Of a stretch of 64,000 bases of DNA, positions 1-46,817 are shown piece after piece. This DNA comes from Chara braunii. Its lineage: Eukaryota > Plantae > Charophyceae. Below the pieces are notes generated by a model. It ran no database searches. It saw only the letters and a list, made by a program, of their open reading frames with translations, and had not been told where the DNA came from. The number at the start of each line of letters is the position of its first letter. The first letter of the stretch is position 1. Both the position numbers and the translations under genes were made by a program. The stretch is from contig BFEA01000009.1 in NCBI GenBank assembly GCA_003427395.1, positions 4,039,660 to 4,103,659 on the forward strand, given 5' to 3'.

Positions 1-1155
1 CCTTCCGCACACAACTCGCCTAGGTGTCATTCCTTCTTTCTTCCTGAACAGGTGGCCGTTCCTTAAAACATACCTCTCGGCTTCCTCCCTTGCCTTGAGG
101 CTGACTTCCATATGCTGCTTGTTTCCTATAAGTAACAGACCGATTTCTCGAAAGATGCCGTCATACATTTGTATGAGGAAAAATTATTGTCCCTCCTGGT
201 TCGTATCTCATTTTTCCTAAGCCTGACTTACTAAATATTGTCGTTCCTTTTGTGTCCAAGACTCTACTAGGCACATCACGGTGTCCCGGCCCCTTTAACG
301 ACCATTGCCATCAATTCCTCTTTCGGCCCCACTGTTGCCCCCCACAAATCCTTTTCATCCTTACGTCTCGTCGTGGTGACAAGCCCTTCCCTGAGTTCCG
401 CAACTACAGCAGGTGCCCCTTTTTCCAGGGTCTGGATTAACAACTGTCCAGGTGTGCAAGCGAGGCTCATCATCACATTATCTGCGACGAGGATTCCTCC
501 TTCGTATTCCAGGAAGGCGTCGATTGGTTCCACATCCTCTATTCCTTCCGATGTGAAGCAGATCCGACTTAGCCCGTCCGCCCTGTTTCGGAGTCCTGCA
601 ATTCGCTCGACCTTGTAATCGAATTGTCAGATAAAGCCTATCCATCTCCCAATGGTCAGGTCTATAGGCTTATAGTTCTTCCATGCCCTTGCGATGTTGG
701 TCGGATCGATCCTCAGGATAAATGGCCTTCCGAATAGGTATGCTTGAAAGGTCTTAAGGCAATGTAGGAATGGCTAAAACCTCTTTCTTGAACTGGGAGT
801 ACCGCCGTTCCGCAGAATTCAGGGTCCTGCTTTCGAATCTAACAGACCTCTCTCTGCCCTCCTCGCTCCTTTGTATCAGAACACCTCTCACTGCCAAGGG
901 TCCTCCATCGGTTTTCAGAATGAAGGGTCGTCCTACTTCGTCGTTGAAGCAGGGCACTGCCAATGTGACTTGGTCAGACGTCAAGACGTCTTTGAGGGTC
1001 TGAACCACTGCTTCCCTATCCTCGGTACATTCCATAGTTCCTCCATCCCTAATCATTGCACGGATGGGCTCGGTTATTTGGGCAAAACTTTTGATAAAGA
1101 TCCTCCAGAATCCAACCACCGCTAGGAAGGCTCGTACTTCCGTTGTGGTGCACAA
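1..1155 (-). pseudogene. pol: pol remnant: RNase H and linker toward integrase
   Basis: ORF 754-1155: EVRAFLAVVGFWRIFIKSFA, TDGGPLAVRGVLIQ, ESRTLNSAERRYSQFKKEVLAI; frameshifted thereafter; YVLRNGHLFRK near window start. Confidence 0.88.
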
Positions 1156-1159
1156 GGGT

Positions 1160-2120
1160 GTTGGTCATTGAGAGATTTTATACGTCTTTGCCGGGTCCGG
1201 CTTCCTCCCATAGGCCCCACAGCAAAACCCCAGTATGGTCACTTCTGGGACCGCCAGGATGCTCTTTGGTCCGCTCGCGGTGATGTTATATACCAGGAAC
1301 CGCTAGAGTAGGTCCTTGATATCTTGTAGGTGATCCCAGACGAACTTCCGAACCCTCGGCTGGACCTCCGTCTCGTCTTTGTTCTGATCGCCTTTTATGG
1401 GATTGTCGTCTTTATACGGCTCACATTTTTTTGGGAACATGTCCCCAGCTACCGCAAACATCCTCCTCTGTGTTTCTGCCACAGCGTTTGTAAGACCCAT
1501 AGGGGTCACTTGTATCTGCAGCTGCCCTACAGGGGTGTGCATGGCGGTGTATGGTCTTATCCCTAGCATCGAGCGGCAGTTGGGCATATCCTGAATATAA
1601 ATCTATCAAGGAATAAATGCTCCAGCGTGAGATTCTGCCAGCAAATCGGGTTGTGGAAGCGATCCCGCATCTCGGATTGTTACCACATTCAACTTCTGCA
1701 AATCCTGGATCCACCTGAGCGTCTTGTTGGGCTTCCGAAAAACAAACCACTTGTTCTCGTAGGGGGATGTGGTAGGTTCGGCCACGAACGAATCTATCTT
1801 GGCTCTGAGCAGTTCGGTGACCTCTGCTGCTATTCCGAACTCGTAGGCAGACTCTTTGTCGTTCCAGCACTCATGTTGCTAAGGTGTAGAGGTCCGCCCC
1901 CCCCTACCTCCTACTCGGTCAATCCCCTGGATGTCAGGGTAATCAATGCTGACAGGACTCTTCCACAATGTTTCTTGTTCTGACATGCTGCAAATTCAAT
2001 CTTTATATAGGACGCTGGGCCCATTTCCCAGCAGGTGATGCTCCCCACCAATGGATGGAGCCTCTCCCCAGGTGTTAGTGGTGTTTGCTCTTATCAGCAC
2101 CTCTAACACTGACGGGGGTG

Positions 2121-2161
<41 letters not shown>

Positions 2162-2470
2162 CTAACGGGGGAAATTACCTTTGCATCCAATCAACCTTTC
2201 TGATGGTTATTGAAAGCAAATACTAAGTGAAACTCCTGGCACACTTTCCTTATCAGCTAGGTCTCTTCCACCGTTAAGAACCCATCTATCCCTATTTTCA
2301 TGGTGTTTGCTACCGCATCAGGTATCCGATGCCCTTCCGCCGCTCGTCTCTCCCTAATTACCCGCAAGATTTCTAGCTCTTTTTCCATGGCCTCCTCGTT
2401 TGACGTCTCTACTAGGATCGAGACTGGCTTGGCTTTTTTCCCTACCGGCTTGTACTTCCGAACACTCACT
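1160..2470 (-). pseudogene. pol: pol remnant: reverse transcriptase, interrupted by a poly(A)-tailed insert
   Basis: SIYSLIDLYSGYAQLPL, AMHTPVGQLQIQVTPMGLTNAV, YKDD at 1405-1416 followed by NPIKG; several frameshifts. Confidence 0.9.
1880..2156 (+). mobile_element. Short poly(A)-tailed retroposon (LINE 3' end or SINE) inserted in RT of element A
   Basis: A-run of ~28 nt ending 2156; 2002-2127 resembles 35350-35480 (ctgggccc...ctccccaccaat.gatggagcctc); RT reading resumes on both sides. Left edge approximate. Confidence 0.7.
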
Positions 2471-2586
2471 TCTGGGATCGTTCTTCTAAAAAATGAACGG
2501 TCGGAATCGGCCTTGCTGCTTCCGCGACGCGGGGTTGTATACTGACTATCTTCCCGTTCAGACAGTAGCCCTTTTGGATCTCATCC

Positions 2587-3693
2587 TTAAATTAGGCAAG
2601 CGCTGCCGGGTCCACCCCTACTTTGTGGTACTTGATAGCCTTGACGAGATGTAACAAGTCCGAAATTTCGAGTGTTACCTCCGGCGTTTCCCTTCGACCC
2701 TCCTTCGGCTTGCTGCAGACTGGCCCCAAGTTCGACTTCTGGCTCCTTCTCTGTCACCATGACCTCTAGAACCTTATCTTTTTGCCTCCTTTTCTTCAGA
2801 GGTAGACCCATTTTGATCCATTCCTTTTTGCGAAAAGCCTCCTCAATCATTATTTCCACTCTTTCTCTCATACCCTCCATCCGGGCGAATGCTCTTTTTC
2901 GTGCACTATCTTCGAACGTTGGTGACCAAGTTGCCAACTTCCCCTTCGGAGGGTCCCCTCCGGTCCCAAGGAGTCGAAGAAACTCTCCCTGGTCGGTCAC
3001 AGGGTCTTCTATATCTACCATATATGTGTCGTCGTGCAAGTGCATGCCTATCATTTCTACGTTGGCGCACCATGGTCTCCCGAGGATTATGTCATGGTCC
3101 ATTTCCTCCATTACGGTCATCCGCTGAAATGACCAGATCGACTCCCTGATTCCTGCCTTAACTTCGCATTTCGTGACATACCCTGCAAAGGGAATTTCCC
3201 CACCGGCTCCCCGGATACTCCCTGTCACTTCCTTGTTTACCATACAACCTGTAATCGTTGCGAAGTCCCTCCGTATGAGGGTGATTTCTGCACCTCCGTC
3301 CACTAATGCGTCTGTATGATGGGTCCCAATCTGGACTTTCAACTTTCCTACAGGAAGTGCATGGAAGCTGAGTCTCGTCCCGGCAGGTGCCCTCATGACC
3401 CCGCCGCCTTCTCGGTCAGGTAGGCTTAAGCGGATGTCCGCAAAGGTTTTTTCCAGGTCCTCCAGATCCCCTGGAATCCTCTGGAGGTTGGCGACCCCTT
3501 GTGGTGCTTCAGCCTCCTCTGTTTCCTGTTCCTGCGGTTCCGGGACCTCTTCTATCTCTACGCGTCTGCGCGTTAGCAGTTGCCTGAGTCCCTTAAGCAA
3601 TCTCGAGCTTACTTGCAACATGGTTTGAAAGGATACAGATACCATGGTACCAAGCAATTTGCTCAGGGTGTCGTCGATTTTTGGCATGGTCAA
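2587..3693 (-). pseudogene. Retroviral-type aspartic protease region
   Basis: DALVDGGAEITLI and DIILGRPW motifs. Confidence 0.88.
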
Positions 3694-3899
3694 GATCGAA
3701 ATTTGGTATCTGAACTTTTTCTTTGCCGCCGTGGCTTTATCTACCGGTTCTTCCTCCCTTGTTTTCCCGTAGACTTTCTCCGGCTACCCAGTCTCGGGCT
3801 CATCTTAATTCGCGCGTTCTGCAACCTCCTCCATTACCGTATCTCGGATAAGTTTTTTTTCTGCCCCTGCCCGTCGAGTGGTGATGTTCACCCCATCTT

Positions 3900-5669
3900 G
3901 TCCATTACCTTCTAGGATGAAATTGACTTGTGTTCCGCGCCCCCGCGGCTGGTCTCAAACAGTGTCCGCTACCGGCTTGGCTTCTACGACGATTATATCC
4001 AGGTTATTCAGGATGATGACGGCACGCCACATTCCGCCTGGCTAATTCCAGTTTATTCGCTCCCCCTGGGGCCCGAAAATTTCGCCTTTAAGGGACCTGC
4101 TGCGTCTCTGTCTCATAATATCGTGGTTGAGTCTTGGGCAGGTCCGCATAAACTGAGAGATCATCATGTAATATCGACACTGCTCATTGGACGGATCTTT
4201 CCTGCCGTATCCTCGGTTGGTTACTGTTGCCGGAACTACGGCCTCTTGGGGTGGGAGGGCGGGGCGGAAAACTTGTGCCTGCATTACCAATACTGCATTT
4301 TTCACTCTTTCTATCTTATTATCGACTCCGTGCACCCGTTCGTGCAGGCTTTCTATTCCCCTCTTCACCTTGTCTCCCGTCTTTCCGGTCAAGTCTATGA
4401 CCTCTTCCTCCTTAAGCAAAGCTAACGTCTCGGTTACCACCGTCTTCTCCGCGAGGTCTGTTACCGTACTGAAGTCTACGTCCCTCGTGTACTCAAACTT
4501 GCTGGTCTGTTGATAAGCCGACATAATCTTATCCTTGTCGAACTCGAAGAACTGTCTAAGGAAATACTTGCTCATGATCCGGTCCATTACCCCGGGAATT
4601 CGTAACGCTACAGGGTAAACGCTCTCAGGAAGTCATTGTAAGTCGCATAGTGGTTCCTTTGTACTGCTGCCAGTTCAGCTTCTGTTGCCATTTTCTCCGC
4701 CTTTAGATACTTCCTCATCATTTCATTTCGGGTCGCTTTCCAGGATCTGCTGGCGGCGACGATGGCCATAATGTCCCTTTCTAAGCTCAGTGGCACATGC
4801 TGCCCTAAGTGGTCCATCTTTTCTTCCTCGCTCCATTTCAACAGGGCTGCTAGATTCTCGTAGTCTATCAGGAATTTGGTGATGTTCGCCCCATCAAAGG
4901 TGAGTTTCTTCTTGGCATCTGCGAGGTAGCCCTGATTTTTGTTCAATGTCAGAGTGAGGGTGGATACTATTTTCTTGAGCCCGCCCTCGCCAGCCGTACT
5001 AGTCCCTTCTCCTTCCTTGTTATCCTTCCGCTTTTCTCTGATTGTTGTTGTTCCTTCCGGATCAAACCACCCTAGTACCCTTTCTCTGAGACCCCAAAGT
5101 CCGTCGCACCCCTTCATTATTTTTCGCGCGGCAGGCAAGCGGTTAGCACCACTGTCTATGGCAGGTGGGTTTGTAGCTTTTTCCGCTTCTACAACCGGGG
5201 AGTCCCCCTTCTCCTTCCCTTTCTTGCTAGGTGTCCCCCTATGGCTACTATCCTTCCCTTCGTGCCTGATTTCGCCCTGGCTAGTCCTTCGCTCCTCTCG
5301 TAGCTCTTCTCCCGGAAGGTCCCTCTCGTTCCCAACCGTCATTTCTTCAATAAGTCTCGCCTTATACTCTGCGGTTCGCTTCTCTATTTCTTCCAGCTTA
5401 CGTCGGGCATCCGAGACTTTCGCTTTCTCGACTATGATCCCATATGAGTTTCGCGGACTTGACCTTTCCTTGTCCCTTCCTTCCTTGTTCTCCTGAGATC
5501 CTCGTTTACTTCCCCCGGCCTTTCCCGAACTTTCCCCCGTCGATAGATCCTTCCCGTCTTCCTTGGTTCCCTCCGGATTTGCTGATTCTCGATCCCTTAT
5601 TGACCCTTCGTTCCTTTCCACGCCCCTCTCTGTACTCCGCAGGTTCCCAGCCTCTTCTTCCGATGCCAT
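3900..5669 (-). pseudogene. gag: gag (retrotransposon capsid domain plus degenerate zinc knuckle)
   Basis: LTFDGANITKFLIDYENLAALLKWSEEEK capsid-like segment; CRYYMMISQFMRTC is a decayed CX2CX4HX4C; stops and frameshifts. Confidence 0.85.
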
Positions 5670-6125
5670 CTTTTCCTAACCCTGCACATGGAAATTGTTT
5701 TCTGCGAAACGGCCGGTCGTTCACAGCTTCCCTAGTTCCCAGGTCCTAAGGTCCTTATCTTTGCTATTTCCATATTTTCCCGTCTCATATCAGTCGTGAC
5801 GGCTTATCTTCCGTTTTCTTATTCTGCAGGGCGCTACTTTCCTCTCCTCTGCCGGAAGGCCCGCTCCCGGGGTCCGGCATTTTGTCACTGTCGTGCCTCG
5901 GTTTTAAATCGGTATCCCGGGTTGGCGACTCTCTATTCGAAGATGACTCTTTTTGCCTTCCCGACTCCCGGATACCCTCAGCGTCCTTAGTGGTGGTGGC
6001 CTTCCCGGTCCCTTCCTGCCGTGTTCTCAGGTAGAATAGGACTCCGACCACTACCTTCCGTTAGATGGTTAATCCCTCGTTTTAATTTCCAACTTTTACT
6101 TTCGCTGCCATTTCCCAGTACTTTC

Positions 6126-7000
6126 TCACGCCGGTCCCTCATGGTTGTCCTGTTCGTCAGGCTCTTCGAACAGGTTAGCCACCCCCTCAAGGTAGTTTTC
6201 TCCCATTTCTATCTCTCTGATAATTATTGGCTCATAGTAGCCTTATACTCCTCAAACGTCAAGCGTGGTAACCCGAATATCAGGATTTCGATGAGTTTGA
6301 GTAGTTCACGGATCTGATTTCCCCAAAACGGTTTATGACCAACTGACACATCATAAAACATTCCCGTCGTCTGTGGCTGGAAGTGGTGGATCCAAACTAA
6401 GGTCGAGTCCACCAAGTCTCTTGCCCTCGAGAGGCTGCCGAATACTAGGTCCACCATAAAACGGGGTACTCGGCACCGCAATCCTGTCATCGGGGCCCTA
6501 AACTCTCACTATCCTCCTACCTCCACCCGAGTTCTCAGTCCTACATTCCTTCTCCCCTGAATCTCCTGGCCTATCCGGTTCACTATCCGGGCAGCCGTTC
6601 GGAATATTGGCAGCAGTCCATGTCCTAGTGCCATCTAAGTTCCTAGCATGTGCCACCCAATCTCTGATAGGTATACGGTCCCCGTCACCCTCAATTCAGC
6701 ATATAGATCGTCCCATGGTCCCCTATTGAATCTCATACCTCTCCATAAACACTCTACCATCATGAAGGTCTGGTCCCTTCCCAAGGTCACAGCTCTTCAT
6801 TCCGTGTCGATCCCTCGGACCAAGTAGCTTGCTGGAAGTGACACTTCCCATCCGTCCTCGCTTTCCGTGGCCGGCCGAGGGTGCGTGGGTCGTCGCGACA
6901 TCCAGGCGCGTCTCATTGCCATCGTTGGTTAGCGGTTCCCTGCACAGTTTAAACAGCGAGCGAAATCTGCTTATTTCAGCCATTCCTTCGACCACCACTT
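6126..7000 (-). pseudogene. Accessory ORF A4 (uncharacterised family), disrupted
   Basis: Manual translation: GTVYLSEIGW (~6682-6653), LRCRVPRFMVDLVFGSLSR (ORF 6224-6490), MGENYLEGVANLFEE tail; all align to A1. Confidence 0.7.
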
Positions 7001-7067
7001 GGGCAACTCCCCAATCCTTAATCCGCCCTCCTTTTCTTCCTTACTCCTACCTTCTTTCCTTTCTCTT

Positions 7068-8057
7068 TTACTGACCCGTCTCCTCTTCTGATGGCTCGTA
7101 CAGGAGGTTCAGACCGTTTACGTAAATAAACCCCTCGTTTATTTCTCATCGAACGACGCCCCATAGAACCTCATCGTTAACAACTGGAATTCTAGGCCTT
7201 GTGGTGAACACAGCGCGCAACATTCGCAACACCTCATACCTCTGCTCACCGCCGAACGACCCCATTTCCAGGAAGGCTCTGTAGTATTCCTGGTGGACCG
7301 CCACCTCCTCCAACGTCAGGTTGTCGAGGTCGGTCACTGCCCGCCTGACAAGATCCAGTCCGCCTAGGTGGCAACCTCATTCGAACGTTCTCACTAGGCA
7401 AATTGAAACTCCCGGTCATGGCCTCCCTAAGGTTTGCTGTCACGTCGTCGAACTCCGGATCTGCGAACTCGAGCCCCGCCTGCCACACTAGCTGTCATGC
7501 CCCTTCGAACATGCTTAGCGAATCTTCTCCTGACGCTAGTAGGACTCCAAACGAGCATCATCCATCCTCCGATAAGTACAACCATCCTTCCGCGCGGACA
7601 TGTCCCCGCAGGTCCGGATTCCACTCACTATTCTCATCCGCCCGCCACTCAACCTCGGTTACCAGGAAAACCATGTTTTCCATAAGCTCGACCCCAACCC
7701 AATCCACCATCGGGTGTCGGACCTCACTTACGGTAGGCAGGCTGATTTCTACGCCGCCAGTCGCTTCCCTTGGGGCTCAATTCCCAGCGGGCGATCCTCA
7801 AGGAACGTCCTCCTTCGTGCCATTGCGCGTCCTCTACCGGCCTTCAATCTTTGCCCCGCGGCGCCGGAGCGATCCCTACAATGGTTGGACACCCCAATCC
7901 CAGTCTTAGTACTCTTATCCCTGGTTGGTTTGCATAAGATACATGTTCCCCTGTCCACGTCACCCCCTAACTTCTCCCCTTCCTCCTTCTTTGCTCCCTT
8001 TACCCCTTCTTTTACCCCTGCTAGTTTGGGCTTTCTTCCTGCTCCTAGTCGTACCAC
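7068..8057 (-). pseudogene. Accessory ORF A3 (same family), disrupted
   Basis: Manual translation 7770-7540: GGVEISLP...DWVGVELMENMVFL...RGHVRAEGWLYLSEDG*; C-terminal EYYRAFLEMGSFGGEQRYEVLRML; start uncertain. Confidence 0.72.
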
Positions 8058-8838
8058 GTTACCTCGAATAGTTTGAACACATCATCCACATAGCAAGGTG
8101 TTGCTGCTACCTCTCTGCGGATTATGGCTTCCCTGATCTCCGGAGCTACCTTTAGCCGATCGTTCATGTCTATATCCAAAATGATGAGGACCTCCCGGGC
8201 TCTGTCGTCGTGGAAGGGCCCAAGTTTCAACGATGTTTTATAAAACTTTTCCGTCAACCACGCGCAATTTACGTGTACCCGCTCCATAGTGCTGGCCACC
8301 TCCGTGACGTGGTCAAAGCCCCCGAACCAGTCCGCCACGAACTCGGGTACCCAAATCTTGGTTCGCAGGTAGGGAGGCCTGAACTCCCTCCATCCCCCTA
8401 TTACGACCTTACTACGGACTACGTCCCAGCCTTTGTTGGCAAACCTCTCGCCTGCCCTCCGAGTCCTCGCCTCCGCATCCCCCAGAAGCCACATCAGACT
8501 TTGTCCTGCCGCGAGCGTTGTGCAAAATAAGTGTCAACCTTGCTCGGAGAGGATGACCGTCCCTACCGACTCCACCCTTCCTTCAACAATCTCTTCCCAT
8601 CCTTCCTCTTCTCTTAGAGGATTCCATACGCGCTCTACCCACAGGTATGATAAATCTGGTACAATCTCAAGTCCAACCCAGTCACATGTGGTCCCTCTCC
8701 ATTGATTATCTGCTGGTATGGACATCTCTACTCCCCCTTCGACTCGTCTCGGCTCCCATCCTTTAAACGTGCAGTCTCTTAGTTGTAGTCCCCTTGCCCT
8801 CCTTGATCCCTTGCACAGCCCCAATCCACCCATGCCAT
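8045..8838 (-). pseudogene. Accessory ORF A2 (same family), one in-frame stop
   Basis: ORFs 8534-8878 and 8045-8494 are in the same frame, separated by TGA: GGVEMSIP...DWVGLEIVPDLSYLWV...GRVESVGTVILSEQG*...WVPEFVA...KFYKTSLKLGPF. Confidence 0.78.
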
Positions 8839-8858
8839 ACAGCCCCGAGCCTTTTCTT

Positions 8859-9671
8859 TTAGAAATCCCAATACTCAATCTTTACCCCCTCTTCCTCATC
8901 CGAGTCGTCTTCGTCCTCCTCATACCACAAGTCATGTACCCCTTCCATAAACGTCTCCCCTATCAGGACATTCCTATACATTATCCTCCAATGCACGTTG
9001 CTCGGGACAAACAGGTCGTTCGTACTAAGATGGTTTAGCATCGTGGCTAGTTCCTTCGCCCAATTCCCTTCGAACGACCCCTTCTCGGCAGACAGATGAA
9101 AGAAGTCTTGCCGGGCCCCTTGGTACAGCCCCATGCTTGCCATGGATTTGCATATCCGCACCAGCCTGCTCCGGGTTCCGAAGACAGCGTCCACCATGAA
9201 GGGCGGCATGACACACCTCAAGGTCCTAAACGACTTTCGTACGTTCGCTCTATCCCGAAGTTCCACCCGTACATCAATCGCCTCCATCACCATTTCCACC
9301 CTCTGGCACGCGGCCCACACCACTTCCCGCTCAGCCTCCTTGAACAACTTGTACGGGAATAATCCTAAGACAAACTCTATAATCATGGCGTTTTCCTTTT
9401 CCTTAGACAAGTAGACCCATCCCCGAGCCTCCACGGTCCCCCGAAACTCTAAGTCCAACAGGCTCGGCGCTAACCTCGTCAAACTAACCTTGGTCCACAT
9501 TGTTGCGATCCATAGGAAGGCATCACTTTCAACCAGCATCACGGTTTGGTATGTCGGCTCCAAGTTCGTCCAGGTCCCTTCTTCCAACATCACAACCGAC
9601 ACCCCACCCCTTACGTTCACCGGCATTTCTGCTCCGCCGGAGTAGGTCGGTGAGGACAACCACCGTGCCAT
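8859..9671 (-). CDS. Accessory ORF A1, intact 270-aa uncharacterised protein
   Basis: Uninterrupted ATG-initiated ORF; AFLWI...RGTVEARGWVYLSKE...LRCVMPPFMVDAVFG...GSFEG; acidic tail; paralogous to A2-A4 and D3-D6/D9. Confidence 0.8.
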   Translation of the reverse strand: MARWLSSPTYSGGAEMPVNVRGGVSVVMLEEGTWTNLEPTYQTVMLVESDAFLWIATMWTKVSLTRLAPSLLDLEFRGTVEARGWVYLSKEKENAMIIEFVLGLFPYKLFKEAEREVVWAACQRVEMVMEAIDVRVELRDRANVRKSFRTLRCVMPPFMVDAVFGTRSRLVRICKSMASMGLYQGARQDFFHLSAEKGSFEGNWAKELATMLNHLSTNDLFVPSNVHWRIMYRNVLIGETFMEGVHDLWYEEDEDDSDEEEGVKIEYWDF

Positions 9672-9679
9672 CTCGTCCT

Positions 9680-10082
9680 TCCCCAGTTGCCGAGTCCTGC
9701 TTTTTCAACGCTTCCTGAAATGTTCCAACTCTGGCATTTGAGAGCGTGAAGGAGGACAAAGTTTACGATCATCCGCTTTCATCATGCCACTAGGCATTTG
9801 ATTCAAGCATTGGACAATGATTCAAAGACTTTGTCGCATTTCTTCAATGCGGACACAATAACGATCATAACAATCTCCTCGTGTACCAAATCGGTCCTCG
9901 GTTAGGTCAGCTGTAGTCCTAGATGAGAATTGTTTTAGACCTCTCATCAAGGTCTCCCTAAATTTTCCCTTTGCCCATTTCCCAAGTACCGTCGCCCTGT
10001 CGCACCCAAAGTTGGTCACCATCCACCGACATTCCTTCTCTTGGTTCCTTTCCTTCCGACTCCTATCCTTGCTCATTTCCAT
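9680..10082 (-). pseudogene. Possible first small accessory ORF of element A
   Basis: 86-aa ATG ORF (9822-10082) whose frame stays open briefly past its stop, lying just upstream of A1; no motif recognised. Confidence 0.35.
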
Positions 10083-12129
10083 CTTCTCTCACTCGTGCGG
10101 ACTTAGATAGGGGGCGAGAATACACGTAAAAGGCTCGGTTCCTTCCCAACAATCCCAAGCAACTTTACAGAGGGAGGCACAAAGGAAAAAAATCAGGCAA
10201 TCCTCGCACACAGGCCGGTCATCTCCTCACCAGCCTTTTCCCAAGAGTGAACTCTCCACTGTTACTATCGGCAGAGTTTTATCCCGTACCTCAAGCACAA
10301 CTCAACCGTCGTGAGCGCGGTACCCAGACTCCAGTGGGGGGACACCCTCACCTTCTTGCCCAGAATACCCCATCCCGTCTTGTCGCTCTTGTACAACCAC
10401 ATTGGCACCGGGAATTACCCCGCGTACTCGGTGGGAACATAAATCGGTCGTCCGGGCATTCACATCCATCGGTCCGATAAGAATTAGCCTTTGCGATGCT
10501 GTATCGCGAGAGGCTACTAATCACCTTCGGAGCTCCCTCCGAGCCCCACATGCAACGACCCCCCGTCGCCCGTCAACAGGTCAGGCCCTACCTGAGGAGA
10601 CGTTTCACACCCCTTCCGGGCAAGGCGCTGAGCCAAGCTCGGACCCACCCGGCGAGAATGCTACTAATCAATCGGCGTGCCAACCCGCCCAACGGCTCGG
10701 TGGCGTGACCTTGCACATGAAAGCCCTGTGGCCTACCCGAAGAAAACGATGTTTCGCAACCCGCACCAGCCGGTTTAGACCCACTCTTTCCTTTCGAAAT
10801 GAGGACGCTCAATTCTCATTCATGCAAACCACAAATCCCAAGCGGGACACACACCGTACAAGTGTCTTTCCCATGGTGCCCCCAACGCTTCCTACCCATG
10901 CCTTACGTTTTTCTCTTGGGACCGTGTATGTCACTCACCCCCAGTTTCCATACATCGTGCCTAGTGCCTTTTCGTGAGCATCTTCAAGGGTGAGCTAGTT
11001 TTCTTGGAGTCTAGCAACTCCCTTCATTCCCCTCATCTTCACTTGTTTGTCCGTTCATAGGGAGGGATTGTTCTTTCTCGATTACCGTTTTGTTCATATG
11101 AGGTTCCTTCAAGCATTTCAAGTGAAAGTGCAAGGAGTCCGCTGTGCTCCGAAGAAGAGAGAAGAAGGCACCCGTGTCGGTCGGAACACTCCGTCGCGGG
11201 ATTTTCATTGAAATCCAACCTAGGCCGAGCACCAACCGCCTGCCAGGTCACAGGAGCCCTTCTTTCACACGAAGAGGAAGGGTCGACCTGTGGCTGCCCA
11301 AGGCTTCCCCGGACTGATGAACGTCAGCCCGAAAAAAGGAGGACTAGAGTCACCTCCCAAGGAGGTGGCTAACCAAGTGTGTCACATGCATGTTATTCCT
11401 CCAGGCTTGGGCTTGCCATGCGCCCAGCCACCCTCAAATCTGATTCTCTCAAGGGGATAGAGCATACACAAGTCCTCGTTCCTTATCTTGAGTTGTGTTC
11501 GCGCACATGCGTCGGACGCCCCCCTCGGGATCGTATGGGTCAGTTTAACCCATACCCGGTGCTTCCACGATTCTTTGTAGCGGTCGTACCCTGACAGACT
11601 TTCGAGCCTGAGTCGACCCCTTTGCGGGTTCCATTTGGCTCGACCCGCCCACGCTCATGCTCAGGGCGCGGGTCGTTCGTATAGGGGCACCCCCACCTAG
11701 TGCTATGAGATGGATAGGGATGGACCATTTGTGAAGGGGCTTTACATTGGGGGATGTAGCTCCGCTCTCGCGTTAGATGGTAGCTTTATGATCACTCATG
11801 GCGTTTTCTCAATTCATTTAAGTGTAGCCAAGCAATTACTCATTCCAATACACAAGCAGTCCAGGGGGTTCCTTGAGAGTTTTTTTTCTTTCGTGCACAG
11901 GCCAAGCGTCATCCTTCGGCCACACACCTTTTCACTAAGGACAACAATCCCTATGGCATCATCGAGGCGCGGCGAGGCCATCCACCCCCTAGCCCCTATA
12001 TTTTTTGCTTAACATACGCATTATGTTCACATGTCCATCGCTACAGTCTTCCCCTGAACAAAACGCACGCACGTACTAATCAACCTTCCTTGGAAAAGTC
12101 TATTTCTCAAAGTCGGTCCCGGAAATCCA

Positions 12130-12250
12130 AATAGAACGCACGTTGAAGTAATGCGCACGTATGTTTTATTCGAATAGTACGCACGTATGTTCTATTCAAA
12201 CAAACAAGTGTTTTATTCGAATATAACACGCGGGTGTTGTATTTGAAATG
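12130..12250. repeat. Cluster of short repeats (gcacgtatgtt.tattc.aa; gtgttttattcgaata), possibly a DNA-transposon subterminal region
   Basis: 3-4 imperfect copies within 120 bp. Confidence 0.45.
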
Positions 12251-13668: not shown

Positions 13669-15167
13669 TTGGACTAGCTTCAACTTGATCCTACGACGAT
13701 CATTTTTTGTTATCACTGATAACAGATCGGTTGGTTGACCGTCGACTCGTCGCCTCACGACACAACTTTGCTTACACGTGTACCTCAACTTTATTGCCTC
13801 AGCCCTGAGATTTTGATATGTTTCTTTGAGGGTTTTAACCGGACTTCTTTTAATGAGCATTATAAATAACTTATGAGATTTATGAAAAGTTGGGCTATGA
13901 TTGGGGCTTGAGTGTGTGAGGTGTGGTGTGAGTTACAAGGAATACTAAAGTTGACCACATTGGTGTATGGCAATGCGCCTATTGTGTGTACCTGTGTTTT
14001 GTGCCGGTTAGTATTTGGAGCTTGATATATGAGCCGTACTTTGGAGACGGTGAGAATGACAACCATGTGACGCGCGATCTGCATACCTGATGGGTTTATG
14101 TTTCCCCTTCTTTTATTTTATCTCGAGTCCTGATTTGATATATGAGTGTTGGATGTTTATTTATTTATGGGATGATTTTGCTTATTAATTTTGATAGTTG
14201 GACGTTGTAGTCCATGGCAGCCGTCAAAGTCAACCCCCTAGACTTATTTTCAGGCCCTGGACGATAGAGCTGGTCACCAAAGCAATAAGAGATGATTGTC
14301 ACCACAGGTATGAACCTGTGTACCACCCACTTTCTGCAAGGTGCAAAAGAGGGTGTGGTTCTCAACCGCGCTTGGCGGTTGTCCAGCGTCGAGAGATCAT
14401 TCCCTCAAGGCGCGTGTCAGCCGACGCTCGAGTATCGAATGCGACCCTCGAGATTAATGAGGACGGCATGAGTATGGGTATAGTACGCCATCATTGCGAC
14501 TGCTTGCGTATACTTGCATTGCGAGTCGATATGAGTTAACCCTGCGTCCGCGCGGTTTTATACTAAGTTCCGTGCGCGTCGCCTATCCGATTTCCGCGTC
14601 GGAGAGTTATGGGATGACTACTAAGGGACTAGGAATGTTGTCGTGTTGTTCGTTCTGTGTTGTTCTGTGAACAGATGTATATGTGTGCATGTTTTTTTAT
14701 TTTTATGTTCTTTAGAGTGGCGTGCGCATGGTGTGTGGAATGCGTCCTAGTCGACCGGCGACAAGCCGTGTTAGGGACCTCAACTCCCCAAGATGTCGGT
14801 TCGAGTGCGGGTATGATAGAGGCGTATTACCGCGTGTACCCCCTATGCTACAGCGAACGAGGAACGCCCTCGGCAAGTCCACCTATGCGATTGTAACTGA
14901 TCAGCTTTTGTACTGTGGACTAGTACCTCGGTGGGGATACGCCCACCAAAGGGAGGTGACAGTTCCTGCAAGGTGGAGGTAAGTCGTGGCTCGTGTAGGC
15001 CCTCTCATGTCGTAGGAGCTCGCGAGAGGTATGGCCGGCACACTCGGTCGGCGCAGCTTGCGAAAACTCCATCATGTATTCGCGACGAGGACAAGACCAA
15101 CTCCTGCGTGACGCGGCCGGGAGGGTCCCGCCCTGCCTTGTGCGGTGTCGGACCGATGCGCTCGACA
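13669..15167 (+). repeat. LTR copy 1 of element B (5'-truncated or uncertain left end)
   Basis: Direct repeat of 26600-28090; ends ...CTCGACA and is followed by a PBS. Confidence 0.85.
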
Positions 15168-26599: not shown

Positions 26600-28090
26600 T
26601 TGGACTAGCTTCAGCTTGATCCTACGAGGATCATTTTCTGTTATCACTGATAACAGGTCGGTTGGTTGACCGCCGACTCGTCGGCTCACGACACGACTTT
26701 ACTTACACGTGTACCTCAACTTGATTGCCTCAGTCCTGAGATTTTGATATGTTTCTTTGAGGATTTTAACCGGACTTCTTTCAATGGTCATTATAAAGAA
26801 CTTATGAGATTTATGAAAATTTGGGCTATGACTGGGGCTTGAGTGTGTGAGGTGTGGTGTGAGTTACAAGGAACAGTGAAGTTGACCACTTTGGTGTATG
26901 ACAATGGGCCTATTGTGTGTGTCTGTGTTTTGTGCAGGTTAGTATTTGGAGCTTGATATATGAGCCGTACCGTGGAGACGGTGAGAATGACAACCATGTG
27001 ACGCGCGATCTGCATACCTGATGGGTTTATGTTTCCCTTCTTTTATTTTATCTCGAGTCCTTATTTGATATATGGGTGTGGGGATGTTTATTTATTTATG
27101 AGATAATTTTGCTTATTAATTTTGATAGTTGGACGTTGTAGTCCGTGGCAACCCCCTTGACTTATTTCCAGGCCCTGAACGATAGAGCTTGTCTCCAAGG
27201 CAATAAGAGATGATTGCCACCACAGGTATGAACTTGTGTACCACCCACTCTCCGCAGGGTGCAGAAGAGGGTGTGGTTCTCAACTGCACTTGGCAGTTAT
27301 CCAACGTCGAGATGTCATTCCCTCAAGACGCGTATCAACCGACACTTGAGTGTCGAATGCGACCCTCGAGATTAACGAGGATGGCATGAGTATGGGTACT
27401 ATATAGTACGCCATCATTGCGACTGCTTGCATATACTTGCATTGCGAGTCGATATGAGTTAGCCCTGTGTCCGCACGGTTTTATACTAAGTCTCGTGCGC
27501 GTCGCCTATCCGATTTCCACGTCGAAGAGTTATGGGATGACTACTAAGGGACTAGGAGTGTTATCACGTTGTTCGTTCTGTGTTGTTCTGTAAATGAATG
27601 TGTATGTGTGCGTGTTTTTTTATTTTTATATTCTTTAGAGTGGCGTGTGCGTGGTGCGTAGGATGCGTCCTAGTCAACCGGCAGTGAGCCGCGTTTGGGA
27701 CCTCAGCCCCCCAAGATGTCAGTTCACGTGCAGGACCAATACAGGCGTATTACCGCACGTACCCCCTACGCTACAGCGAACGAGAAACGCCCTCGGCTGG
27801 TCCACCTCTGCGATTGCAACTGATCAGCTTTCATATTGTGGACTGGTAGCTCTGCGGGGATATGCCCACCGAAGGGAAGTGACAGCTCCCGCAAGGTGGA
27901 GGTAAGTCGTGCCTCGCGTAGGCCCTATCCTGTCGTAGGAGCTCGTGAGAGGTATGGCTGGCGTACTCGGCCGGAGCGGCTAGGGAAAACTCCATTATGT
28001 ATTCGCGACGAGGATAAGACCAACTCCTGCGTGACGCGGCCGGAAGGGTCCCGCCCTGCCTTGTGCAGTGCCGGACCGATGCGCTCGACA
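26600..28090 (+). repeat. LTR copy 2 of element B
   Basis: Aligns with 13669-15167 throughout, ends CTCGACA; true start may lie further left (TGTCG at 26558). Confidence 0.85.
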
Positions 28091-28535: not shown

Positions 28536-29899
28536 TTGGTTTGAGATCGCCATTACCGGCACTGGCAACATTGTTACTTGGTGTTATGACAAAGCTTCTA
28601 TGAAGTGAGGATACATTGGTGCTGACATAGTTTGCCCCTCCCGAGTAAAGGGGAGGCTGGCAAGAAGGTCGTGGCACGGCGTGGAAGTTGTGGCAACAAC
28701 GGGTGTGTATGAGATAATGAGAGCATGCTGACATGCATTTTGGTTGAGGCGGCACTGCATTGCATTGCACGTGGTACCAAGGCTATGACCGGTCATCAAA
28801 ATGCACCTCGGCTGAATTGGTGAGAAATTTATGGTTGGGGGCAGCTATCTCCAGGTATGTTGTTCCCTTACCTTATCTTCCCATCTCAATCTCTTCTTAC
28901 TGTGAGGAAGTGAGTCTATCTTGAGTGTCCTCCTCTCGTTCAGGAGTTGTGAGCACTCTACCTTGAAAGTCGACATTCTTTCTAGCGGTGCATCTGGAAG
29001 GAGAGGGTTGTACCTCTGAAGGGCCATGGTCGAAGCACGGGTCACGATCACCATGCCAGCCCATGGGAGTAGAGCATGCATGCTTTGTTGCTTTGTCCTT
29101 TATGCTTTTGCTGCGTTGTAGAGGGGACGTGGACTGACCAGTCCTATGCAAGACGTTTACCTGACCGTTTATAAATTATTTCTGGCAGGATCTGATCTGG
29201 TTGTGATTATCGTCATGTCTGCAACGTTAAATAATTCCTGAGGACCTTGGGGGTTATCCTTAAACTGCCTCTTGATCAGCCAGATCAGTCGGATGTAAGG
29301 CTTGTTGCTCACGAGGATAAATAACGGGCATTACTAGTCATAAGCGGGTTCATGGGCACAAGGGTGGACCAATATGCACACGACAAACACTGCTACTTGA
29401 TGATGTAAGTCAGACTCGTTGGATACAGGGGAAGGGAAGGTTTCAATTAGTGCTCGTATACAAACACAATTATTTCCATTACCGCATACATTTGTGCACT
29501 TGATTTATTTCTATTTTGATTAGTTGAGGTATGACAGACTGCCAACGCCTGACAAACAACATTAGTTTAGAACTGAAGTAGTCTACCATTGCCAGTTTTT
29601 TGTTATGTTGCTGTAGGATAACTAATCGGAATAGGAATAGATCAATTGGTCAGTCTGTTGACACGACTTGATCGGTAGCATGCGTGACTTGCCGAATATT
29701 TATTTATTTTTAATTTTTTTCAACTCGATCAGACACGTGTTGTGGTAGGCTCCAGTGACGGAACTAGTGCAGACGGTGATCTGGTTAGTTGATGAGAGGT
29801 ACAGATAGTGGTGAAGGGATAGCTGACGATAGGAGGCAAACACGGTGGGATACACAAAGGATTCCGGTAGTGGTTCAAGTTATGTTACTTGTTTCAAGG

Positions 29900-31600: not shown

Positions 31601-31879
31601 CAAATGCAATAACACAAAAGTCTCTCAAAAGATTCCTCCCAAAGATGGTTTTGTGGGGTCGTTCACCCAAAGTGGTGCCTCTACAAGCTCCAACCAGAGA
31701 AGCATATCTGGTCAGAATAGAAGTTATTGTTGCTTATACTCATGATGAAGTGATTGATGTACCCTCACCACTTCACGAGTTGGTCAAAGGTATTGACTCG
31801 ACGCTTTGTTCGTTAGATGTATCTGAGGTCTTAGAAGATTTGGAAACTAAGTGGTCGGCAAGGGACCCTCGTGAGTCTT

Positions 31880-33600: not shown

Positions 33601-34089
33601 GTGCCCGTTAACATGCCAAGATTTTAGAAAACGTACGGGCTACTACAAGAGCGCCCAAATTCATCCGCCTATAAATGTTTCTACTCTTTTTTTTTTCCGC
33701 GGTCGATAGCTAGGCCAAGTACTAGTGGTTTAGGAAACCATCAAACAAGTGGTTCAAGACGCAGCATGTACTCTACACCGCACTCAAATGCTAGATTGAA
33801 GTCATAGATCAATATGACTTCAAGATAGACTATCTGAAAGGAGAGTACAATAAGATTGTTGATGCGCTATCCGATAACTGCATTTCGCTTATTTGACAAT
33901 GTAACTCGAGCATTGGTGGCCGCGTACAAGGAACATCCTCCAATGGTAGACATCATCCACAAACTAGATGTGAAAAACAAAAGCAACATCTGATAAGTTT
34001 GTGATGGTAAATGGATTTCTCTTCCTTGAAAAGGCAGGGTTCAAAAAACTATTTGTATCGTCTAGTGAGATTTCGGGTAGTTTATTTTA

Positions 34090-42322: not shown

Positions 42323-42719
42323 ATGAGCCTAAGAGTTTTGGAGGTTGAGCCAGCTGGCATTAGTGTGGGTAGTTGTGGCCCTTCTGGGGATGTAAACGTT
42401 TAGTGTTACAACTTTTATTTTGTGGACTGGAGATTTTGACATAGCACTCTATGTAGAAGAAGGGACGGATCGAGGGGAGGACTTCCTGGATAGCTGGGAA
42501 GAGGCGGTTGGCCATGCTCGGCTAAAGAGGGTACTTTTAGGAACTTACGGGATTAGGCATTTTTACACACTAGGGTGTCGAACCTTCCGACGAGGAAAGC
42601 GACCCGCCCCAACTATACCGGAGGCCTATCTCAACGGGTCGGGCGGTTGGAAGGTGTTAGTAGGGATCATCGGGGGGGTGGTCCATGGTCAGGATTCTAG
42701 AGGCGACTGGCGACGGTAA
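42323..42719 (+). pseudogene. Accessory ORF D2, tandem paralog of D1 (stop at 42401, frameshift ~42418)
   Basis: MSL...GISV...WTGDFDIALYVEEG...SWEEAVGH...YGIRHFYTLGCRTF...RPAPTIPEAYLNGS. Confidence 0.8.
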
Positions 42720-43427
42720 GATCCAAATCGAAAAGGCCGACCTCGACAAGGAGAGACAGTGTTTCAGCGTCCCTTTAGACCATCGTATGGAGGGATATTT
42801 AGCCGGGCGCGAGAGAGGCCTGAAACTCGAAAAGGGAGTTTTTCTCTGGGCGCGCTTTACTGTAGGTATTTGGGAAGGAGATCAGTGGACCAGGACTAGA
42901 CCTAGGAACGGGGTGAAGGCCCGACGAGCGACGCTTCGTGCGGAAGGCACGATCTACTTGAGTCGGGAGGCCTAGGTAGAGTACGTCACCCACTAGGCGT
43001 TAGGGCGGTATCGGGCGGACCATCAGGAGGTACGCGTGGGGCCTATTCTTAAACAGTTCTTCGAGGAGGTACCCCTTCGACACAACCTGTTGTTCCGCTT
43101 GCGAGTGACTTGTGCTCGGAACGAGGAATACCCTCGTGCTACGGGTTGCGTCCAAGCCATATTTTCATCTTACGTCTTCAGGAGAGTGTGTGGAGAGGGA
43201 GCGCGTACGAGAAGGTCGTGAAGTCTATAAGGCGAGAGAAAAGAAGAGGGTTGTCCTTTCATTCTCTTCATTGGTACTTCTCTTATTGTGTGGATAACCC
43301 GGTGCCGTACGGGGTTAGAGATGACCGGATCCGAGAACGGGTCTCTTTGGAATCGGAGCAAGAGCGTGAAGGCGGGAGAGACTACCATTACCAAAGGGTT
43401 TTTGAAGTTCGGCAAAAGGTGTTTTAG
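42685..43427 (+). pseudogene. Accessory ORF D3 (main family), disrupted
   Basis: MVR start; VFLWA...RATLRAEGTIYLSREA*; EYPRA; KVVKSI...LHWYFSYCVDNP. Confidence 0.75.
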
Positions 43428-43432
43428 CATGA

Positions 43433-44122
43433 ATGGTTCTTTTTGACAAGGACCTTGGTAAGTTTGTCGGGTCCCCTTTAGATGAGCGAGGGGTTCGTAG
43501 CTTGGTTCCAAGCAACGGGGAAGTCCCCGATTGGAGGAGGTTGCAAGGTGGAAAAATCACGGTCGGCGGGAATTTCGTGTGGATAGAGTCGGGAGAAATA
43601 AGGGTTAGAGCGACTAGGGTGCATCTCAAAGTCACTGCGATAATCTTTGTCGAGCCGGGCGATTGGTTCAAGGTCGTAGTACCCCTGGTCTTAGGCCAAG
43701 GGGGTGGGCTGGATCTATTGCTCCAAGAAGTAAGAGAAGTAAGGAGAAGGTGGATAGTGAGGACCCGGAGAGAGTTTAGCTTTGTGGCAATAAAATTAGA
43801 GCAGTTCGCCCGGACAAGCGAGCTTCCGAGGGCGAGTTATCCGTTAACCTCAAGGGCCCCGAGCTTTGTATTCTTGAGATCAAACGAGGATAGGGTAGTA
43901 AAGCTCTTGGAGAGAGGAAGAAGTTTAGGCCTACCCTTTAGGGCCCTGTGGATACTTTACACTCACTGTGTCGACCAGGGAATCCCTCCGCGAGGGAAAC
44001 TCTGGGGTATTTTCAGGAGGCTTGGGTCTCTCGAAAAGTATGTTGCCCTCTCGCCTGGGAAGTACCGCGAGTGGGTCTTCAAAACAACCACGGTAGATGG
44101 TAAGGTTTACGCTCAGCAATAG
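43433..44122 (+). CDS. Accessory ORF D4, intact 229 aa (main family)
   Basis: NFVWI...KVTAIIFVEPGDW...LVLG...LPRA...APSFVF...RVVKLL...LWILYTHCVDQGIPP. Confidence 0.8.
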   Translation: MVLFDKDLGKFVGSPLDERGVRSLVPSNGEVPDWRRLQGGKITVGGNFVWIESGEIRVRATRVHLKVTAIIFVEPGDWFKVVVPLVLGQGGGLDLLLQEVREVRRRWIVRTRREFSFVAIKLEQFARTSELPRASYPLTSRAPSFVFLRSNEDRVVKLLERGRSLGLPFRALWILYTHCVDQGIPPRGKLWGIFRRLGSLEKYVALSPGKYREWVFKTTTVDGKVYAQQ

Positions 44123-44799
44123 CGGAGTGGTAGAAACGATAGAGGTCGGTGAAGGAAGTCAGGTCTTGATTCCTAGGGACCCTCGTGTAACTCTCTACTG
44201 GATGAGTGTTGAGAATTGAGAAGGGAGAAAACATCGGAGAAGGTGCTTACATGTGGGTCAGGGCTCATCGACTCACCTGGAAGGAAGGGGTGCGAAGGGG
44301 AGGTCCGCTTCACCTGGGTCGGTTTCTCGAGGTCCAGGCTACGGTTTTCCTGGACGAGGACTCGTGGACCGAAGTTTGGAGGGGCTTAGTGACCGGCCTA
44401 GAGACTCATACGGAGTACCGCAAGTCCGCGAGGAAGGCAGCGAACGATATAGTACTAGGCAGTTACGAGGAAGGGACTTCGGTCCCTCGAGCTTCCAAGG
44501 TGCTTCACGCAGCCTTGCCCGAGTTCCTGGGGCAGTCACTCCTGCGGGACCCGAAAGGGAGAGTGGTAGAGGAACTCCGAGCCGCTCAACAATCCAGGGT
44601 GCGGACGCAAGGGCTATTTTGGCTCTACACTCGGTGTGTTGACGCTGGGGCTCCCCCTGGGGGAGAGCTAGCTCCTATACTCGAAAGGTTAAGGGAGTTT
44701 GAGGGGGTGAGAGCTCACGTTGTTGATGTCCCGTACGCCCGCCTCTTTGGGGAAGAGCAAGTGACTAACCGAAAGGGGTACGAGGCTCGGACGGGGTGA
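44097..44799 (+). pseudogene. Accessory ORF D5 (main family), frameshift near 44210
   Basis: ATG 44097 (MVRFTLS...) joins ORF 44206-44799: AYMWV...EVQATVFLDEDSW...VPRA...LPEFL...RVVEEL...LFWLYTRCVDAGAPP. Confidence 0.78.
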
Positions 44800-45549
44800 T
44801 GATAAGGGGAATTTCGGGAACTCGTTGGGCCTCGATAGAGCCTATAGAAGAGGCGGGGGAGATTGTCCACATCATGTTACCGAAAACGAGCTTGGAGGGC
44901 CCGACGCGAACCATTCAAAGAGAAGTGGCTGAAATTCGCCGAGGGAAGGCATTCGTTCGGTTGTCAGTGAATAGCGAGAAGGGGTTAGTGATCGGGGAAG
45001 CCAAGATATTCCTTTCGAAGGAAGGTCCCCTAGAGGTAGTCCGAAATTTGAAGTTGGGAGAACACCCTCTCTTAGACGTGCGAGTTGTACGACAGATTAG
45101 AGAGACTAGTGGAGGAGGTGAGGCCTCGAGAAAGGTACCGAAAGGTATATCAAGTGACATACGCAGGTTGGGAAGAGGTACCGCTATTTGTCGCCAGTAA
45201 CCCCGTAGGAGTCCCTCGTTTCATCCTCGAGCGGGTCTACCCCTCCGAAGCGGTCAAGAGGGCGGTAGAGTGTAGGATCTCGATCTTGAACCAATTTCGG
45301 TTCACTAGATCGGACCTGCACGCCCTACTATCGTGGTGCCTCCGAAACCCATACCAGGACAATTGGTCGTCACTAGACGACATGGGCTACGCCTTCGAAG
45401 GTTGGGGCCAACACGCGAGGGCGTCGACCATTTCGTGGAGGTACTTGGGGGAGATCTGTGAGGCAGGGTTAGAAGGATTGGACCCCTCGGATCTCATTCG
45501 GATCGTGATTGCGTGCCGACGAAGGAACTTGAGGCATGAGCACGCCTGA
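44799..45549 (+). pseudogene. Accessory ORF D6 (main family), one frameshift
   Basis: MIR start overlapping D5 stop (TGATG); VRLSVNSEKG...AKIFLSKEG...LGEHPL; VPRFILERVYP...LHALLSWCLRNP. Confidence 0.75.
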
Positions 45550-45730
45550 CACCGGAGAGCTAGTGGGACTAGAGAGGGTGAGGGCAGAAGTGTATAGAAT
45601 CCTGACCCTTTGTTGGGAAGAGGAGAGAAGAGCAAGGTCAGGGTCCTTGCGCAAGATCAAATTACTTGAGACAACCACGATTAAGATCTTCGACGAATTA
45701 AAGGAGGAGCTGCTATCGGGAGGAAGATAG
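45536..45730 (+). CDS. Accessory ORF D7, 64 aa, helical/charged
   Basis: ATG overlaps D6 end; stop 2 nt before D8 ATG; no motif. Confidence 0.55.
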   Translation: MSTPDTGELVGLERVRAEVYRILTLCWEEERRARSGSLRKIKLLETTTIKIFDELKEELLSGGR

Positions 45731-45732
45731 GC

Positions 45733-46083
45733 ATGAGAGCTACCTACACCTCTAATTCGATAACCTGGGAATTAGAGACGCGTGACAACGGCCCCGAGGT
45801 CGCGGTAGAAGGGGGAGGGGAACTTAGCCCAGGTCTCGGAGAGGACCAAGAGGCTCGAGCCAAGAAGGAATTCCTCGTCGAAGTCCGACGATTAGCTTTG
45901 TGGAAGAGGAGATCCTGTAGCACTTTTGCAAAGTTTTCGGTTTTTGTTAGTAAGGCGGGGGAAGTGCGATTCTCTAGGACTCGGAGGGAACCCTTGCTTG
46001 AGGTCAAGAGAAAGTTTGAGGAGGGCTCTAGGTGGCTCAGGACTCCCTTCGAATTTTTGCACCTAGTTGAGGCCCGTTTCTAG
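45733..46083 (+). CDS. Accessory ORF D8, 116 aa, unknown
   Basis: ATG 2 nt after D7 stop; FSVFVSKAG weakly recalls the family motif. Confidence 0.55.
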   Translation: MRATYTSNSITWELETRDNGPEVAVEGGGELSPGLGEDQEARAKKEFLVEVRRLALWKRRSCSTFAKFSVFVSKAGEVRFSRTRREPLLEVKRKFEEGSRWLRTPFEFLHLVEARF

Positions 46084-46214
46084 GATAGGACGGGACAATA
46101 CGAGAGAGTTTTGCAGAAGACGATACTCGACCAAGGCGAGAGAGGGCGAGGGAGGTGTGAGGACTCGTTAGCGGAGGCGGCCGAGAGATTAGCCCGGGTA
46201 AGGTAGGCCTGTCA

Positions 46215-46817
46215 ATGATTAGATACGACAGGGGGAGCCTTGTCGGGACCTTGAAAAGGGCTTGGAAGTCGGGGGCTATATATGGAGTAACCCTCCCCAA
46301 GATCAGGGAGGAAGGGGAAGCTATTACGAAGTTCTTCGAGATCTACGGGCAGAAAATGATAGTTCGTTTTTCGATAGTTTCCGAGGGAGGTACCCGCACG
46401 CGAAGGGCTGGAATCTTCATGTCTCACAACGATAGGCAGTTCTTTGTGACCGAGTTAGCAGAAGGAAAGGACCCTCTAGGTATCGCTCGAAAAGCCCTAG
46501 ACCGGCTTAGAGGGTTGAGAGGGGGGGCCGCCGAAGGACGCGTGGTAGATAGGATTGAGTACCGAGGGAGGCTAGAGATCCTGCATGCGGCTCACGGCCG
46601 GACTTGGGAAATCCCTGCTTGGGCCTACCGACTGCTCTACCCCGACGACGCGGATGTGAGGAAGGTCCTAAATAGAGGGCAAATAATTGAAAAATTTCCC
46701 CAAGGAGAGGAGAAGGAACACGAGTTATTCACCCAGTGTTGGGAGCCGCGGGAGCATACGTACTTCGAGTGGTGGGCATTAGTAGGGAAGTTCATTAAGC
46801 CTCTATTTAGAGGGTAA
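46215..46817 (+). CDS. Accessory ORF D9, intact 200 aa, closest to D6
   Basis: MIR start; VTLPK; VRFSIVSEGG...AGIFMS...EGKDPL; IPAWAYRLLYP...HELFTQCWEP. Confidence 0.78.
   Translation: MIRYDRGSLVGTLKRAWKSGAIYGVTLPKIREEGEAITKFFEIYGQKMIVRFSIVSEGGTRTRRAGIFMSHNDRQFFVTELAEGKDPLGIARKALDRLRGLRGGAAEGRVVDRIEYRGRLEILHAAHGRTWEIPAWAYRLLYPDDADVRKVLNRGQIIEKFPQGEEKEHELFTQCWEPREHTYFEWWALVGKFIKPLFRG

Follow-up and report, generated by a model that had tools for sequence, protein, structure and literature searches.

Why should a retrotransposon carry, ahead of its gag gene, four members of one gene family? This question is raised by a stretch of 64,000 nucleotides from the charophyte Chara braunii (GenBank assembly GCA_003427395.1, contig BFEA01000009.1, positions 4,039,660 to 4,103,659 of the forward strand), hereafter the window, whose own numbering is used throughout. 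On its minus strand, from 9671 to 6126, a retrotransposon that we call element A bears four homologous coding segments, A1 to A4, of about 245-270 codons each, all in one orientation between the candidate 5' long terminal repeat (LTR) and gag of a Ty3/gypsy element. Extra open reading frames (ORFs) are common in plant LTR retrotransposons, for which reports usually describe one or two of them, unrelated to each other (PMC7264820, PMC6317226). In element A, duplication within one uncharacterised family has produced an ordered array of four genes, and the family is seemingly arrayed again in a second family of elements. The array is real, family-wide and under selection where this is testable.

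The homology of A1 to A4 is supported by several comparisons. When the segments are read through their breaks, with X placed at each break, all six pairs align with 20-32% identity and z scores of 12.9-36.3; none of 1000 shuffles reached the pairwise scores, and reversed sequences remained at background. Self-tBLASTx gave collinear off-diagonal matches (e.g., A2/A4, 72 bits over 137 amino acids, and A2/A3, 46 bits), precisely the signal on which the original prediction, made from the letters of this DNA, had staked its claim of a four-copy paralog array. Moreover, a profile for which A1 and its 13 relatives alone were used recovered A4 (E 7e-14), A2 (E 1e-10) and the two halves of A3 (E 9e-5 and 2e-4). 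At the DNA level, no similarity was found among A1 to A4, the best blastn match having an E value of 0.46. Regarding the motifs that had been written out as shared, including the four tails, 13 of 13 strings could be located; the C-terminal block is present as well, with a spacer of seven residues, and not six, from the aromatic pair to [SP]F.

As had also been noticed, A1 (8859..9671, minus strand, as for the other three) is the only intact copy, an open ORF of 270 amino acids with an acidic tail. A2 (8045..8800) has lost its start codon and contains one in-frame stop, A3 (7068..7823) has three stops and two frameshifts, and A4 (6126..6922) four stops and one frameshift. That three of the four copies are broken, and that A2 and A3 stop at the same column, are the features one would invoke to explain the array by chance or neutral processes, namely similarity of low-complexity sequence, a duplication restricted to this copy, or programmed read-through of one polyprotein. 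Other copies, which are known from protein searches, from one contig (L001) and from tables of DNA and RNA reads, speak against this explanation. Indeed, the stops at 6797, 6637, 6510 and 7495 are mostly absent from them (among 40 of 1732 difference rows), and every paralog in the relatives opens with its own Met. The stop common to A2 and A3, located after LSE.G, occupies a conserved Trp codon, and since the relatives have a Trp there, it reflects two independent decay events and no read-through signal; programmed read-through was hence ruled out. With the shuffled and reversed controls and with the conserved order and purifying selection described below, a chance or neutral origin is largely refuted and we regard it as highly improbable. 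The stops in this copy are decay, and the copy of element A in the window is dead, the reading frame of A1 excepted.

Judged from its relatives, the array is a trait of the family and not of one copy. A1 has 13 close relatives, all of them hypothetical proteins of Chara braunii with 61-82% identity, and A2 has one from the same alga, the intact CBR_g4576 (79% identity). Searching 1.84 billion representatives with a profile of the four paralogs returned 63 proteins; the 23 whose source was looked up comprise 22 C. braunii gene models and one Logan protein, and none of the 63 was recognised as a cellular relative. At a threshold of at least 40% identity, these matches contain pieces of A1 (18), A2 (12), A3 (32) and A4 (10). 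A gag or pol piece is present in 50 of the 63, downstream of the array piece in 49 of those 50, and the order A1-A2-A3-A4 is kept in all 13 gene models with at least two different paralogs. All four genes are represented in DNA contigs from other copies, the read depth over the array being no measure of copy number. Pieces of element A thus account for dozens of C. braunii gene models labelled "hypothetical".

A tree of 49 rows, from which five short rows were left out, assigns each array position to its own clade: A1 (15 rows, 100/99), A2 (9 rows, 99/97), A3 (14 rows, 100/99, with two subtypes) and A4 (5 rows, 100/100). This is the outcome expected from the phylogeny by array position that the original prediction had proposed. 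Its pairing of the copies was right for A2 and A3, which join at 94/92, and wrong for A1 and A4, which form no group; the top pairwise score among the four paralogs is that of A2/A4. Deeper branching is unsettled, and the order of the duplications within the array is not resolved by the tree. The serial duplication inside the element that had been suggested is nonetheless borne out by four homologous genes that share their orientation and lie between LTR and gag. Because there is no DNA similarity, each position has its clade, the order is kept and selection is purifying, this duplication is old and family-wide.

Several relatives deserve separate mention. Five distant C. braunii proteins form a further clade in the tree and, judged by eye, look as if gag-like sequence came after them. 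Distant members are also found in other C. braunii models (P0070-P0072 and P0076-P0078), most of which continue, by eye, into gag-like sequence, so that the domain seems to occur in additional families of elements. P0041, which is intact and A2-like with 35% identity, derives from a Logan contig of 1349 bases and may come from another organism, which would give the family a wider range. Compared with this copy, P0019 has an A1 with 67% and an A2 with 85% identity, and P0021 an A1 with 88% and an A2 with 57%; paralog modules look as if they had been shuffled between subfamilies, and such mosaics could be the product of recombination or of gene models merging neighbours. In P0056 and P0045, array pieces are fused with a protein kinase or with a WD40 domain, and both are probably annotation chimeras.

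Selection was measured between the copy in the window and L001. The ratio of nonsynonymous to synonymous differences per site (pN/pS) was 0.29 for A1 (95% interval 0.23-0.37, 249 codons) and 0.17 for A2 (95% interval 0.12-0.23, 211 codons), versus 1.0-2.1 in the shifted-frame control for the two genes. A1 and A2 are under purifying selection. In each of the 21 models that have both parts, conservation of the accessory proteins falls below that of protease or RNase H, with median identities of 63% and 78%, respectively.

The domain is probably not restricted to element A. When the six frames of the window were searched with a profile of the N-terminal domain (N-domain), nine matches were obtained, A1 to A4 and five in a second element on the plus strand, element B (42814-46508). 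The E values of the latter are 2e-4, 0.008, 0.012, 0.34 and 4.6, the best reversed control being 1.4. The corresponding segments B3, B4, B5, B6 and B8 (42700..46817) lie ahead of the gag of element B and in the same sense as it, in a region (41900-46817) where about eight coding segments precede gag, five of them resembling the A family. Paralogy is also apparent inside element B, among B3, B4 and B5 and between B6 and B8, with z scores of 7-18. Comparing the A and B alignments by hhalign gave a probability of 90.6 over 60 columns, in a test that is not fully independent, the B alignment having been chosen on prior hints. No longer relatives of the B proteins were found among 7996 candidates, which is weak evidence, and as no database relatives were found for them the link between A and B is probable, not proven. 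On the profiles from within the window, the five B segments are thus probable remote members of the A domain family. Element B also contains a younger tandem pair (42034-42306 and 42411-42683) with 63% amino acid identity over 91 residues, which is unlike the A family.

What kind of protein has been multiplied in this manner? With 44 aligned sequences, AlphaFold2 modelled residues 16-250 of A1 at a predicted local distance difference test (pLDDT) score of 82 and a predicted template modelling (pTM) score of 0.74; an earlier model with 10 sequences had reached a pLDDT of 43. The A proteins are predicted to adopt a soluble two-domain fold. In the model, the N-domain is of the alpha/beta type and contains a long hairpin, formed by strands 36-51 and 59-73, and the C-terminal domain is helical. 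There is no clear membrane segment, the maximum 19-residue hydropathy being 1.05-1.09 in A1 to A3 and 0.69-1.29 in six relatives; the decayed A4 reaches a borderline 1.69. Pfam returned no family for A1, for the open pieces of A2 and A4 or for the intact relatives P0015, P0041, P0053 and P0070, and PHROGs none for the array proteins. Searching PDB sequences gave a single match, of E 0.76 and outside the domain, and Foldseek gave no match at E<=0.001 in either PDB or BFVD. The best VIA-align match has a Z of 5.3 (root-mean-square deviation (rmsd) 3.6, 74 aligned residues, in the helical part), another run giving 4.5. ESM Atlas had no usable match for A1; its BTB-like matches to P0015, with scores of at most 0.83, were distrusted and rejected. 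This absence of structural match does not prove a new fold. On the model, element A would nevertheless offer, in an alga closely related to land plants, a confidently predicted fold of which no relative has been solved.

These searches bear on the possibility that A1 to A4 are enzymes or captured cargo acting on host metabolism or chromatin. Retrotransposons bearing enzymes do exist, and S74, R137 and E192 are conserved in more than 70% of rows. However, none of the columns is invariant across the 44 rows and conservation stays at or below 70% in every D, H or C column, which disfavours an enzyme, and the proteins have neither an invariant catalytic residue nor a Pfam, PHROG or PDB match; nor do the 63 matches include a recognised cellular relative. 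We consider enzymes or cargo quite improbable.

A somewhat better case, albeit still an improbable one, can be made for the N-domain being a degenerate KH-II-like module that would bind the element RNA directly, for export, translation control or packaging. Its predicted core has the succession beta-beta-alpha-alpha-beta, with a conserved glycine (G88, kept in 39 of 43 rows) between the two helices. OsmC, the C-terminal domain of MamM, FliF and Era, to which the N-domain is weakly similar, would form one structural group with KH-II. In superpositions probing for a KH-II-like or ring-building-motif-like fold, made with the N-domain as part of the whole model, the Z scores were only 3.4-4.2 (rmsd 3-4.5, 71-95 aligned residues). 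The GxxG loop of KH domains is not found, the turn being mostly GxxP, with a Pro at position 91 in 33 of 43 rows. Finally, the proteins are acidic: the net charge of six relatives ranges from -6 to -17, which favours protein partners over direct binding of RNA.

A further possibility is that A1 to A4 form the subunits of a single hetero-oligomer, such as a ring, a filament or a particle-associated layer, serving packaging, storage or cell-to-cell movement, each being kept for its slot. The strict retention, in order, of four deeply diverged paralogs would be explained in this way, as would the long beta-hairpin of the model. The weak matches of the N-domain also include proteins that form rings or shells, namely FliF (Z 4.2, rmsd 4.2, 85 aligned residues) and chimallin (Z 4.7, rmsd 4.1, 108 aligned residues). 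Yet Z values below 5 are within the background of the structure search, as holds for the whole set of N-domain matches by VIA-align (OsmC, the MamM C-terminal domain, FliF and chimallin, with Z 3.4-4.7). In addition, the number of members seems to vary by family, four in A and five in B, and the module shuffling of P0019 and P0021 fits independent genes better than tightly fitted subunits. Such an oligomer appears rather unlikely, although it is the strongest of the alternatives.

The reading that we prefer, tentatively and with slightly less than even confidence, is that A1 to A4 are non-enzymatic, host-facing accessory proteins, made from spliced messenger RNAs (mRNAs) of their own, which would take the element RNA past silencing or nuclear retention. 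In such a scheme, a single LTR transcript would be spliced from the leader to an acceptor ahead of each ORF, and the resulting proteins would bind host proteins, thereby allowing the element RNA to escape silencing or nuclear retention. Each paralog would be specialised, probably on a different host partner, hence the retention of all four, and their activity would be one of counter-defence, as we infer. Argonaute hooks of the GW/WG type were considered in this context and set aside, each protein having 0-4 of them versus 0.9-2.2 expected.

Signals that could support such splicing are present on the minus strand (a slash marks the putative splice junction). The leader has donor-like sites in 10284..10354, AAG/GTGAGG at 10351 and GAG/GTACGG at 10289, both of which are conserved in L001. 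In the 4.66 kb from 10260 to 5600, TGCAGG occurs only twice, within the acceptor-like TGTGCAG/G just 5' of the A4 start (6942..6948) and within that just 5' of the gag start (5684..5690), both of which would serve as acceptors; the P value of this placement is about 0.002, for a pattern picked post hoc. L001, which played no part in the choice of the pattern, has TGTGCAG/G 11 bases 5' of its A2 start, and A1 has GCAG/G ahead of its start. A1, A3, A4 and gag all start with ATGGC in this copy. Taken together, these sites suggest one spliced mRNA per gene.

Several points weigh against the proposal of spliced, host-facing accessory proteins. First, the acceptors are incomplete: this copy has no CAG/G at a distance of up to 35 bases from the start of A2 or A3, the looser YAG/G pattern is not enriched (P 0.13), and TGCAGG is absent from the array of element B. 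Second, reads on the array are absent from two of the three RNA runs, and those of the remaining run (X7) mirror the DNA depth (rho 0.92 over 30 bins including flanks), as expected from DNA carry-over, and were rejected as evidence of expression. Third, the relatives are automatic gene models splicing around breaks, and not observed proteins, and the selection measure comes from a single pair of copies and from A1 and A2 only. Fourth, relaxed constraint fits the faster evolution of the accessory proteins as well as conflict does. Finally, no fold or family search gave a match pointing to an activity, and what A1 to A4 do is a matter of inference. The system may help in this respect, as four paralogs, many copies and intact natural alleles constitute built-in comparisons for the function of accessory genes.

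Taking both elements together, one can speculate that gypsy elements of Chara have grown one novel-fold protein into independent tandem arrays, with four members in A and five or more in B, alternatively spliced as in complex retroviruses. Such a "gene accordion" would represent a diversified toolkit for counter-defence or assembly. We hold this broader view as a possibility, less securely than the accessory-protein reading itself.

The remainder of element A is also on the minus strand. The candidate 5' LTR (10260..12228) measures ~2 kb and extends from TGTTA at 12228 to TAACA at 10260. Reads have loose ends at 12223-12229 and the DNA depth is above that of the array; for its 3' end, the inverted ends are the sole indication. 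The 3' LTR falls outside the window, and no primer-binding site was identified. In the leader, a mitochondrial nad7-like insert (9709..9888; Pfam Complex1_49kDa, E 3e-6) is absent from L001, and DNA contigs of other copies skip 180 bases there; it is atypical for the element A family. RNA reads of X6 and X8 in the 9709-9888 bin probably originate from the mitochondrial gene. The broken gag (3790..5669) matches gene models named "Retrotransposon gag domain", and Retrotrans_gag is weakly matched in relatives of the element. The pol region (1..3693) encodes protease (gag-asp_proteas, E 3e-6), reverse transcriptase (RT), with its motif region at ~1400, and RNase H (RT_RNaseH, E 2e-13), and leaves the window before the integrase core. 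A run of 29 A at 2128-2156 splits it between protease and RT.

Other elements are present in the window. The LTRs of element B (~36966-40327 and 53756-58870, plus strand) are 91-93% identical and both contain a 95-base tandem repeat (38816-39234 and 57377-57795). A further long pair of direct repeats is found at 13669-14778 and 26600-27701, and a different pol of the gypsy type, which includes a Tf2-like SH3 domain, lies at 29800-35300.

How does element A relate to known systems? With an integrase following RNase H in relatives (e.g., P0040 and P0055), its domain order is gag-protease-RT-RNase H-integrase, and it is a Ty3/gypsy element on this ground; all its named relatives are from Chara braunii. 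Its RT motif, YIDDNP[IV]KG, may resemble that of Ylt1-type elements. Ylt1 is listed in fungi (PMC2864245). An additional, archaeal-type RNase H is a trait of the Tat/Ogre lineage (PMC6317226); no second RNase H family was detected at E<=0.01 in seven long models and 17 proteins, and in P0036 and P0055 about 210 unmatched residues lie between RNase H and integrase. In the Pfam searches, the array proteins matched neither the plant mobile domain (PF10536) nor Transposase_28 (PF04195) nor Athila ORF-1 (PF03078). They are not env-like either, since the array precedes gag instead of occupying the interval from pol to the 3' LTR and its products have no clear hydrophobic segment. Literature searches, which did not cover the C. 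braunii genome paper or the eORF tables of PMC6317226, returned no description of the family or of paralogs arrayed ahead of gag, and the functions of extra ORFs in plant LTR retrotransposons are treated as open in PMC7264820.

The closest counterparts are the rice elements Retrosat2, RIRE3 and RIRE8, with a single ORF0 at the 5' side, in sense and before gag (PMC3485330), and Ogre elements, with one to two extra ORFs (PMC6431247, PMC6317226). They share with element A a sense extra ORF between 5' LTR and gag that is under purifying selection and evolves faster than the polyprotein. By contrast, as far as these sources describe, they carry one ORF0 or one to two ORFs, whereas element A has four paralogs with position-specific orthology. 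A model for the export version of our proposal is CERV of the Caenorhabditis elegans element Cer1, an accessory protein made from a spliced mRNA and needed for RNA export (PMC10309623), which is likewise a lineage-restricted accessory of an LTR retrotransposon without homolog outside its host group. CERV is however a single gene, with a 3' exon located after pol and a cysteine-rich region, and its function has been demonstrated, while that of the array is a proposal. For the silencing version, the "works like" model is VANC, an anti-silencing protein of VANDAL DNA transposons related to MAIN (PMC13547354), i.e., a transposon accessory acting against host silencing; many host contacts are also predicted for accessory proteins of Arabidopsis transposable elements in the same source. 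Unlike the array proteins, which have no such match, VANC is MAIN-related and encoded by DNA transposons. Retroviral accessory genes are expressed from spliced LTR transcripts, are mostly unrelated to one another and are positioned after gag-pol. Element A resembles complex retroviruses in having several small accessory genes beside gag-pol (PMC7264820), and differs from them in that its genes are paralogs, located before gag, in an element without env. Single extra ORFs at the 5' side are hence already known; for an ordered array of paralogs, no report was found in these literature searches.

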